Below, in pieces: positions 1,648 through 56,032 of a DNA stretch of 64,000 bases. Where the stretch lies: NCBI GenBank assembly GCA_964016885.1, contig OZ024742.1, positions 248,248,001 to 248,312,000 on the forward strand, read 5' to 3'. Under the pieces are notes generated by a model. It saw only the letters and a list, made by a program, of their open reading frames with translations, was not told where the DNA came from and did not search any database. The stretch comes from Eledone cirrhosa. Its lineage: Eukaryota. Made by a program: the position numbers and the translations under genes. The first letter of the stretch is position 1. Each line of letters starts with the position of its first letter.

Positions 1648-1811
1648 TTTTATTGTATAGAAGGAGCTTCTACAGGACTAGTACTGTTTCATTCAGATGA
1701 AACAGTACTAGTCCTGTAGAAGCTCCTTCTATACAATAAAAAAAGTTTACTCTGCCATGTATTGAGTACCTTACTTACTGTGGTTATCTCCGACTCAACC
1801 CGGGACCTACG
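1648..1811. repeat. Inverted pLTR-like pair (family E): perfect 45-bp arms 1648-1692/1697-1741, right arm extended about 70 nt
   Basis: Direct reverse-complement comparison; flanked on both sides by (TA)n; the extension recurs inverted at 38498-38560. Confidence 0.85.
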
Positions 1812-1973
1812 TATATATATATATATATATATATATATATATATATATATATATATATATATATATAGAGAGAGAGAGAGAGAGAGAGAGAGAGAGAGAG
1901 AGAGAGGACAGACAGACAGAGAAAAGAAGATAATACGAATTAGTTTCAGATGTTACTGTTTTTTATTGATAAG

Positions 1974-2048
1974 GCTGTGATTAATATTACAATGACGACA
2001 GTGGTCACGCGATTCTGAGTAACCAGTGCCATCATCTCATCAGAAAGC
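1974..2048 (-). ncRNA. Hammerhead ribozyme motif (slightly decayed)
   Basis: gcttt CTGATGA [GATGATGGCAcTGGTTAC-loop-GTGACCAcTGTCGTCATT] GTAA TATTAA TC acagc; long stem II, GAAA mutated to GTAA, stem I 4/5 paired. Confidence 0.6.
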
Positions 2049-2290
2049 TTCTTACATAATAAGGTTACAGTGAAGTCTTATAAAATAAGGGAACGCGCGA
2101 AGGCTTCAAGAACATCATCTTTGTCCGTTCCTTCGTTTTAATTTGGATTGCGCGCGCGTGTCTGTGTGTGTGTGAGTTCAGTAAAAGATGTTTTGGTAAA
2201 AATCAGCAGTAAGCAGAGGAAGCTCTCTATATTCGTAGTGTGTAATTAACATGGAGATTCAGGATAAGTAGAACATTAACACAGATGGTG

Positions 2291-2570
2291 CGATTACATA
2301 ACGCGCTTATTCATTATAGTTATTTTAATGGTTCCCTTATGCAATCCACAATGTAACGTATGGATTTCTTGTTGGAATGCGAATGGTTTCTTCAGATGAA
2401 AATCCGTTTATGTGATATACCGCAGGCAAAACAATCATATCCTTCTACTTGTGTTCCGGGTAAGCAATCCCATATACAATCCCAGACAACAACAAATGCA
2501 TGCGTTACATCGTGGATTGCATAAGGAAACCATTGAAATAATTATAATGAATTAACTCTTTATGTAATCG
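2291..2570. repeat. Diverged inverted pair (family G), arms about 2291-2374/2487-2570, with composite hammerhead
   Basis: Arms are diverged reverse complements; left arm (minus) gives ttcat CTGAAGA..., right arm gives GAAA TAATTA TA atgaa. Confidence 0.7.
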
Positions 2571-2657
2571 AAGAATCCTTTTTAATGTTATTCTAATATA
2601 TATATATATATATATATATATAATAAATGCAATCTGAGTTTTTCGAATATTAATAAT

Positions 2658-2731
2658 TGTTTCTACTTTAGGCACAAGGCCAGCAAATACCCAGTGCATT
2701 ACTGGTCAACCTCGGCAGGATTTGAACTCAG
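2658..2731 (-). mobile_element. Internally deleted SINE inserted in a pLTR fragment (family P) with 11-bp TSD
   Basis: ATATTAATAAT at 2647-2657 and 2732-2742; the uninterrupted host sequence is seen at 3047-3085 and 16666-16748. Confidence 0.8.
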
Positions 2732-2796
2732 ATATTAATAATAATATTCGATTCGTTTGCAATTATGCAGATAGCCTCTTTAAGCCATGTCAGTAC

Positions 2797-53805: not shown

Positions 53806-53960
53806 AACGGCGATGAATTAATTTTGCGAGGTTTTTGATATGAAATCGTGTGTCGATATAAAAGACACAGAAGCGAAAACCGAACAAACAGTGAGTGTGT
53901 TCTGTTATTAATTCTGGCAATATTATTACACAAATATGACCCTCCCCAAATATAACAATA
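53806..53960. mobile_element. Minimal two-armed family C insertion
   Basis: 53806-53852 is the inverted distal tail; 53853-53960 is the upstream segment ending gtataacaata-like at (TA)n. Confidence 0.85.
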
Positions 53961-55021
53961 TATATATATATATATAACAATATATATTGGTAAACGGAAT
54001 AGAAAATGCTGACAAATTGTTCACAGTGAAAAATAGTTTAATTAGGAATAAGTTTGAATTAGTAATGGTATTGGTTACTATTCAGTTTCGGTTTTAAGTT
54101 TTACCGGTTGCGCATTTCTAATGCTTTTCAAAAATAATTTTGAGATAGAGCGTCCGTGATGTTTGCTCTGATCTGATTAGTTTTGGGAATTCTACCTGTT
54201 TTTATGTTAAAAAAGTGGCTCCAGTGGTATTAAAATAAGTTTTGCGCCAATTCGTGTTGCAAAAATGATTGTGGTCAAAACAATTTTGATTGGTCGGTGG
54301 AGGTCATGTGAATGTAAACAATTGATTTGGCGCCAAATGTAGGTTTGTGTCGGCTGACTGAGAGATACGTCTTTCACAACAAATATGTGTGTGTGTGTGT
54401 GTAGTAGTAGTAAAGAGGTTCGTTGTTGTGATAATGGTCAGCAGGGATGTATGTGCGCGAACCGCAGACTGTTGACAGTTCAAATGCCTATTAAGACAAG
54501 TGTGTTTGTGTGTGTGTGTGTGTGTGTGTGTGTGTAGCAGAGTAATTCGTGGTAGAGAGATGGTCAGTAGGAATGTGTCTGTAAGTGTGTGGGGGATATT
54601 TTAACATGTTAAAAGATATTTTTTCAGCTCTTGTCTTATACGGAGAAGTGTGGGTGGGTGTGTGTGTGTGTATGTGCGTGTGTGTGTGTGTGTGTGTGTG
54701 TGTGTGTATGTGTGTGTGTATGTGTGTGTGTGTGAGAGAATGTGTGTGTGTATGTGTGTGTGTGTGTGTGTATGTCTCTTTGTATGTTAATGTACGCGTG
54801 TGTATGTGTGTGTGTATATATATATATATATGTGTGTGTGTGTGTGAGAGAGAATGTGTGTGTGTGTGTGTGTGTGGGTGGATCAGTGTTTATTTCTGGT
54901 AAAATGGTGTACATTATTCGATATTTTCAGTAAAATCGATTCTCTCAATAGAACATCAAAAACCTTAATAATAAAAGGTGTGAAATTATATATAGTATTG
55001 GCATAATACCAAGGTGTGTGT

Positions 55022-55290
55022 GAGTGTGTCCAGATTGTACGTACTGCAAGGGGGATCCATTAGGCCTTGCCGTATTGGAATACCTGTGCACAAATATGTA
55101 TCTGGAGTGTGTTCAGAAATTGTATACCTGTGCACAAATTGTATACCTGTGCACATATGTATCTGGAGTGTGTGCAGAAATTGTATACCTGTGCACAAAT
55201 ATGTATCTGGAGTGTGTCCAGATTGTACGTACTGCAAGGGGAATTCATTAGGCCTTGCCGTATTGGAATACCTGTGCACAAATATGTATG
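55022..55290. repeat. Nested tandem repeat (about 80-bp, 41-bp and 19-bp units sharing ATACCTGTGCACAAAT)
   Basis: Direct inspection. Confidence 0.85.
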
Positions 55291-55306
55291 TGCCCATGAG
55301 TGTGCA

Positions 55307-55678
55307 ATGCATGTGTGCGTTTATATATTTGTGTGTGTCGGCACGTTTATATCTATAGACATCAAAAGGTATGCAAATTTGTGTATATTTGTGTTGCACC
55401 ATAGAACATGTGTGTTTACGTATGTCATTGTGTTTATGTGTGGGTAGAGATGTATGCTGATGTAGGTATGTATGTTGACGTGTGTATATATATATATATA
55501 CACACGTAAACATACATACCTACATCAGCATACATCTCTACCCACACATAAACACAATGACATACGTAAACACACATGTTCTATGGTGCAACACAAATAT
55601 ACACAAATTTGCATACCTTTTGATATCTATAGATATAAACGGGCCGACACACACACATATATAAACGCACACATGCAT
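55307..55678. repeat. Palindrome, 178-bp arms centred on (TA)8
   Basis: 55307-55484 vs 55501-55678, about 4 mismatches. Confidence 0.92.
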
Positions 55679-55752
55679 ATATATATATATATATATATAT
55701 ATATATATATATATATATATATATATATATATATATATATATATATATATAG

Positions 55753-56032
55753 TATTAAGGATACTATTTATGGTTATGTATATACTAAAACCTTTTATAG
55801 TTATATATATTTTAAACCCTAAACAGTGAAAGACAGTAATTTATTACTACCTTATTACCAGTAAGATAAGTGTGCATCAATATATACATATGTATATGTC
55901 TCTTGTGTTGGAAAGGAGTTCATGTATGTAAACAAACATTGAAAAATGGTCCGAAGACTCCAAACCTCGGTTTGGATGAAACAATTGTAAGCTAATAAAT
56001 GGTTTGAACAGAACTTTGATTCATGTGAATCC
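55753..56032. mobile_element. pLTR family M insertion with internal inversion; hammerhead-like motif 55948-55992 (+)
   Basis: 55753-55869 is colinear with 62490-62588; 55890-56030 is the reverse complement of 62635-62775; ggt CCGAAGA cTCCAAACC-tc-GGTTTGGAt GAAA CAATTG TA agc. Confidence 0.8.

Follow-up and report, generated by a model that had tools for sequence, protein, structure and literature searches.

Head-to-head insertions of Penelope-like retroelements (PLEs) in (TA)n runs joined one arm ending at a proximal 3' site (P) to one arm ending at a distal 3' site (D). This pairing rule is real and held for about 93-100% of the pairs; it is strong, not absolute, and concerns only two-armed insertions, which make up half to two thirds of the total. 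The best reading of the sequences is that priming took place twice, at two separate fixed sites. Probably, one complex cuts both strands of the target and primes reverse transcription at P and D, one site per end.

The elements and their setting

The window, a 64-kb stretch of a 3.0-Gb animal genome, was rich in (TA)n runs. Its self-comparison revealed numerous short repeats and hairpins with TA borders. Arms were laid out 5' to 5', and the (TA)n runs adjoined their 3' ends. Judged by sequence motifs, the arms are PLEs in (TA)n, with family A in the Hydra clade and family D Neptune-type. Features are listed by position, with the strand where one applies. Apart from A, C and D, the letters given to families may differ from those of the preliminary description of this window.

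1649..1811: family I inverted pair; P end 1649 (- arm), D end 1811 (+ arm), tail ~72 nt
3454..3677: family G inverted pair; D end 3454 (- arm), P end 3677 (+ arm), tail ~90 nt
25087..26110, - strand: family A long arm (Hydra-clade PLE by motif), atypical short proximal end (-82)
about 25327-26121: broken RT-thumb/GIY-YIG coding sequence in the family A long arm
26110..26557, + strand: family A inverted arm with distal end
26421..26460, + strand: predicted type I hammerhead motif, CTGAnGA...GAAA core and a helix III region that is palindromic, located upstream of P and of D
26492..26557, + strand: 66-nt P-to-D tail of family A, carrying ACTC...GAGT
26871..27471: inverted pair of a further family with few copies; P end 26871 (- arm), D end near 27471 (+ arm), tail ~155 nt
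33453..33672: short family A pair; P end 33453, D end 33672
33696..34107: family C pair; P end 33696 (- arm), D end 34107 (+ arm), tail ~61 nt
34154..34308, - strand: D-ended family C arm with no partner, mirroring tail to tail the arm that ends at 34107
34620..34855, - strand: P-ended family C arm with no partner
34873..35382: family D (Neptune-type) pair; P end 34873 (- arm), D end 35382 (+ arm), tail 58-60 nt
37695..37763, + strand: unpartnered family D P-ended arm
37779..38028: family E pair, arms not overlapping; P end 37779 (- arm), D end 38028 (+ arm, beginning within the 90-nt tail)
38498..38597: family I pair; D end 38498 (- arm), P end 38597 on an inverted arm of 18 nt
53807..53957: family C pair, clean inversion; the D arm is tail only and starts 2 nt after P, P arm inverted
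55752..56031: family F pair, arms not overlapping; D end 55752 (- arm), P end near 56031 (+ arm, then (CT)n and (TA)n), tail ~150 nt

Family A occurred as partial tandems of a TA-flanked unit of ~2.5 kb. The partial tandem formed pLTRs in 26 of the 27 loci examined and was absent from one; the tail-to-ORF junction had 25 matches in the genome. Any target-site duplication is masked by the (TA)n target. A motif reading of natural copies gave a single frame with a reverse transcriptase (RT) and, at its C-terminus, a GIY-YIG endonuclease (YxDD and VIY...YVG, each in 11/12 copies). The protein had 64 homologues of at least 691 aa, and comparison with Pfam and PDB sequences returned no RT or GIY-YIG match.

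Among 12 decayed copies of family A, DKT (not DKG) was found in 10, the CxCX5C linker in seven, and CxxC and CxH in nine each, beside the conserved E and N. All 11 readable copies were free of cysteines between VIY and YVG, and hence of the CCHH motif. By motif only, family A is assigned to the Hydra clade of PMC8557442 (section 11). The available text of that section agrees in unit size (<3 kb), DKT, CxCX5C linker, absence of CCHH, CxxC and CxH, hammerhead and (TA)n target. This motif-based placement has one difference, at the N-terminus: RWR (6/12 copies) replaces RWK, which was present in the three homologues examined. A first assignment to Neptune was dropped, as family A showed neither the CX2-5CxxC linker nor CCHH.

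Family D was linked to a Neptune-type frame at one locus (L067), where both arms had CX4CxxC and VVY..C....C..YIG, with two cysteines inside GIY-YIG; Nematis may also fit these motifs. A Hydra-type ORF lay ~1.0-1.2 kb upstream on the same strand at three loci of family G, two of H and one of I, an association by adjacency only. No RT/EN ORF was found linked to the 3' ends of C, E, F, M and X.

In eight of the ten family references (A, G, I, E, D, C, H and M), a pattern scan detected a hammerhead core lying upstream of P and D; it detected none in X and Y. An Rfam scan gave no hammerhead match, and the type I hammerhead is given here as a motif predicted by pattern.

Two other repeats were observed in the window. 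A 397-aa frame at 40299-41492, which matched zf-RVT weakly and below the cut-off, belonged to another retroelement. A SINE-like family of ~180 nt had ~10 copies (3235-3415, 9408-9596, 17787-17889, 43186-43916, 44541-44730, 47058-47248, 48878-49264 and 50720-50873).

Two 3' end sites and their pairing

Arm 3' ends fell at two sharp sites, 58 to ~155 nt apart. In 30 long family A loci, ends lay at D (position 0) and at P (-66), with extra proximal stops at -69 to -74 (BLAST stops) and one each at -82 and -85. De novo clustering covered 2538 TA-adjacent ends in 1.22 Mb, made up of the window plus 40 stretches anchored on A and 80 taken at even spacing. Eight of the ten families mapped had bimodal end histograms, the offset between P and D being 66 (A), 80 (X), 91 (G), 72 (I), 90 (E), 60 (D), 61 (C) and 89 nt (H). 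The same asymmetry had been proposed for further families in the preliminary description; for M and Y, the references were confounded by internal TA runs. The distance of 55-100 nt proposed there applied to most families, and the longer tails of family F (~150 nt) and of the family at 26871 (~155 nt) fell outside it.

Exact counts across the genome gave 1809 family A ends at P plus 648 at a 2-nt variant, and 2725 at D. Two other UA-bearing sites, a CCAC/TA look-alike inside the tail and a site near the proximal motif first described, had 21 and 14 ends. UA is thus insufficient by itself, since P and D each had ~2,500 ends, and the end positions were not continuously distributed. Family D had 12,135 exact ends at P and 10,829 at D.

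The family A proximal site was ...aaccacttc/TA, 66 nt from D. The motif first described for it, ...ggtgaactaact, was off by 14-16 nt. Of the two examples given, 33467 was internal and not TA-adjacent, the arm ending at 33453, and 25087 was an atypical short end rather than a typical one. The family A distal ends (26557 and 33672) were correct as first described. So were, to within 3 nt, the C/D proximal (33696, 34620, 34873, 37763 and 53957) and distal ends (34107, 53807 and 35382), and the arms were indeed without overlap in the shortest cases (53807-53957, 37779-38028 and 55752-56031).

TA or ATAT directly followed P in 8/8 families (two-letter background 0.10-0.29), and TAT followed the family A distal site in tandem copies. 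An ACTC...GAGT motif began 4-11 nt after P in A (17/23), X (14/20), I (10/11), E (9/10) and H (6/6), at rates below 0.006 in shuffled sequence; it was not found after P in G (0/5), D (0/13) and C (0/4). The corresponding tail hairpin folded weakly (z mostly -2 to 0, with 0-2 pairs showing two-sided change) and was absent from C/D. Common descent may account for the sharing of the motif across families.

Some arms, with P as well as D ends, carried (TC)n before (TA)n (L203, L025, L186, L188, L193, L201, L055, L075 and window 56031), which would reflect either compound targets or reiterative copying at initiation. At window 22845-23220, the 27-nt distal end of an A-related family was repeated several times with TA spacers.

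Pairs were first defined by coordinates, as adjacent head-to-head matches within 3 kb on contig C1 (73 P and 100 D ends for family A; 100 P and 92 D for family D). Mixed pairs made up 23/23 in A (p 7e-8) and 39/42 in D (p 3e-9), with 0.49-0.50 expected by chance. The sequences of the three family D exceptions were examined: two were true D+D pairs, and in the P+P case a long TA tract divided the arms. By sequence, 49 distinct family A pairs were compared, of which 47 were mixed, two of these with a short non-canonical proximal end; L055 (split by TA) and L060 made up the rest. Full-length A copies with both outer ends readable were mixed in eight of nine cases, the ninth (L203) being P+P. The proposal that pairs always consist of one P and one D arm therefore stood for nearly all pairs and failed as an absolute rule, with D+D at L266 and L267 and P+P at L203 as clear same-type pairs and L060 (D with near-D) as a doubtful one.

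Seven other families, in DNA not selected for them, contributed 73 D+P rows, with no P+P and no confirmed D+D. A further 31 rows had an unassignable end, and ~66 mixed rows were left after dropping six cross-hits between C and D and one duplicate. Internal TA runs led to the exclusion of J, K, Y and the first M proximal class from the pair counts; M was re-mapped. Five short partner arms were rescued, all mixed.

In the flank examined, between roughly one third and one half of the anchored arms lacked an inverted partner. This was the case for 13 of 40 P-anchored A arms. Among 30 P-anchored family D loci, 16 had a D partner, one was unclassed and 13 had none within 1.5 kb; among 30 D-anchored loci, a set that overlaps the former, 16 had a P partner and 14 had none within 1.5 kb. 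Single P-ended arms were about as common as single D-ended ones.

Several arrangements were set apart. Apparent D+D pairs at L134 and L067 were actually tandem units ending in P. The P+P at L268 and the D+D at L055 had a long TA tract between the arms and were probably separate insertions. Tail-to-tail mirror duplications on a TA run were observed at window 33953-34308 (98% identity), 55309-55676 (92%) and 22715-23381 (90%), and at L273, where variants were shared. These mirrors are either a process apart from the head-to-head pairs or an assembly effect.

Origin of the paired arms

In 18 of 89 pairs the D arm stopped short of P, leaving the arms without overlap; exact inversions were found at L270 and window 53807. 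The arms overlapped in the remaining 71. Among 46 family A pairs, the P arm reached more than 5 nt further 5' in 14 and the D arm in 20, and the two were level in 12. D arms that do not reach P, together with P arms that extend further 5', require two starts.

Minor variants were shared at 0.19-0.73 within pairs and 0.02-0.10 between pairs (4-9x, 7/7 families). Divergence was lower within than between pairs, with p<0.05 in 6/7 families. Arm lengths were coupled (8 long-long, 26 short-short and 2 mixed of 36; Fisher 1.5e-6), in a test that omitted L089, a long-P/short-D pair contrary to the coupling whose gap exceeded the 400-nt limit. Together, these three observations point to an origin of both arms of a pair in one event. 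The shared variants could alternatively stem from one active source or from conversion of one arm by the other at a later time.

In the scheme that we prefer, an integration complex would cut both DNA strands within (TA)n, and each cut end would prime reverse transcription at its own start site on the element RNA, P or D. The TA 3' end may pair with the short UA motif at each start site. By analogy with PAc, a Poseidon element, a protein dimer may sit near the tail, with one active site on either side of it. The two cDNAs would then be joined 3' to 3' through microhomology and filled in; overlaps of 1-16 nt were present at the junctions of 27/46 A pairs. Priming at one end only would leave a single arm, ending at either site.

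Whether the template would be one RNA or two was addressed by two predictions of a single shared RNA. The D arm stopped in the tail in 18/89 paired and 10/39 unpaired cases (p 0.49), so that no excess indicative of blocking was seen. Tail-only inserts starting at P numbered 16, with no enrichment relative to TA junctions at control sites (6 and 33); they were real, 15/16 spanning P to D. Both predictions failed, which counts against a simple one-RNA picture. In addition, ~80% of pairs overlap, meaning that the same RNA stretch was copied twice, which requires strand displacement or two RNAs. Programmed twin priming, as put forward in the preliminary description, thus stood in so far as two primings at P and D fit best, also with the in vitro behaviour of PAc in the available text of PMC11167929, and was weakened where it implied one shared RNA. 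One RNA is slightly favoured over two. It is conceivable, if somewhat doubtful, that one dimer holds one RNA at the tail element (ACTC...GAGT, five families) and presents its two start sites to the two sides of the break, with inverted pLTRs and the one-sided tail as direct products, and that this arrangement, with telomerase-like UA motifs, is conserved across Hydra, Neptune and Poseidon.

Another explanation is that both cDNAs start at D, and that the GIY-YIG endonuclease then cuts the TA-bearing P site in the intermediate, so that one arm loses its tail and rejoins (TA)n. Resolution by the endonuclease is offered in PMC8557442, within its available text, as the likely origin of tails; the TA or ATAT at P in every one of the eight families would be a plausible cut site, and overlapping arms would arise without strand displacement. 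We consider it unlikely. The cut and the rejoining would have to occur exactly once per insertion, other TA sites in the arm were used ~100 times less, and single P-ended arms were about as frequent as single D-ended ones. Moreover, the RT of PAc starts at both sites in vitro, according to the accessible part of PMC11167929.

Self-priming by fold-back was proposed in PMC3846280, in the portion available, from palindromes at junctions: the 3' end of the first strand snaps back and copies itself, or an antisense RNA primes itself, and synthesis stops at P. It predicts the shared variants, and the 12 level A pairs, in which the two arm starts lie no more than 5 nt apart and in several instances at palindromes, would suit it. 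Under this mechanism, however, the P arm must lie within the D arm, and it can yield neither the 14/46 P arms longer than their D arms nor the 18/89 non-overlapping pairs. Simple fold-back is excluded for those copies; it is refuted as a general route, covers a subset at most, and is improbable as the source of the pairing.

A functionally asymmetric dimer carrying two RNAs, or two rounds in a set order with the first strand fixed at one site and the second at the other, would suit the overlap of most arms, the missing blocking signature and the occasional D+D and P+P pairs. Lengths and variants were coupled within a pair, however, and single arms ended at either site, so the first priming was not bound to one of them; we give this explanation little credence. 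It is very improbable that a few hairpin elements were copied whole and the pairing inherited rather than remade: two family X pairs (L068 and L125) had an identical junction and a few loci were duplicates (L047/L048, L071/L072), but junctions differed among nearly all of the 49 pairs of family A and among those of G and I, and pair spans in family D ran from 74 to 2432 nt, by which this idea is largely refuted.

Some observations concern tandems and 5' ends. At L067, a D-ended arm followed a 5'-truncated ORF inside one unit, as expected of a restart at D (one case); ATAT joined the D-ended arm to the mid-ORF of the next unit (L067:3075-4789). This suggests a restart at D as a possible route to partial tandems. 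The upstream pLTR of full-length A copies began inside the tail in 9/26 loci (L093, L184, L188, L197 and five more), in four within 4 nt of P. In family A pairs, 24 of 72 arm 5' ends (24 of the 54 belonging to short arms) lay at -146 to -130, just upstream of the hammerhead, with similar clustering by eye in G and I. The pile-up at the predicted hammerhead cut site itself was weak (3/72 at -103..-98).

Relation to published systems

Parts of this anatomy are already published. As far as the available text of the sources goes, a tail on one of the inverted pLTRs was described in PMC3846280, PMC8557442 reported that often just one end carries it, and PMC11167929 showed a pair of RT start sites on its two sides. 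The optional tail of EN+ PLEs measured 30-40 nt there (PMC3846280; PMC8557442, Fig. 2 legend), compared with 58 to ~155 nt here. The one-tail pattern has now been counted, at ~93-100% of pairs, and non-overlapping arms were common. A 34-bp repeat is given in the available text of PMC2377424, and PMC4209133, PMC13282606 and the preprint 10.64898/2026.07.22.740005 provided, in the parts available, background on the subject only. The origin of the inverted and tandem structures of PLEs was named as open in the accessible text of PMC8557442 and PMC11167929.

The closest comparison is PAc. In the available text of PMC11167929, its RT starts at two sites bounding the tail, both target strands are cut and extended, and a dimer is predicted. 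The families described here resemble it in the two sites that bound the tail downstream of the hammerhead, in an AC-rich sequence in family A, and in the probable extension of both strands. PAc showed no strand difference in bulk and started without homology to the target. Per-molecule coupling lies outside that work, in so far as its available text shows, whereas the present elements, Hydra and Neptune-type, had 2-8 nt of TA microhomology. PAc also belongs to a different clade, Poseidon, from the families here, which are known from sequence alone.

Twin priming of L1 offers a further parallel. There, both ends of the target prime and the inverted 5' part is joined through microhomology; the second primer acts at a variable internal site, and the arms hardly overlap. 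Priming by both target ends and microhomology joining would be common to the two systems. In the PLEs, by contrast, the second site was fixed and most pairs overlapped.

The two-site idea being published, our addition is the coupling of both sites within one insertion, counted across two clades, together with the long tails, the TA microhomology and the tail motif. Neither a count of P/D pairing nor twin priming applied to PLEs was found in the open literature searched; an earlier statement may exist elsewhere. P/D pairing refines the known anatomy of PLEs and does not amount to a new system. Its near-strictness over many independent insertions rules out symmetric models as well as simple fold-back, and offers a sharp prediction, molecule by molecule, for the in vitro system of PAc. 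The fixed P and D sites also set element boundaries for the annotation of tens of thousands of copies. If one dimer and one RNA are indeed involved, the inverted pLTR and the one-sided tail would come straight from one conserved reaction.
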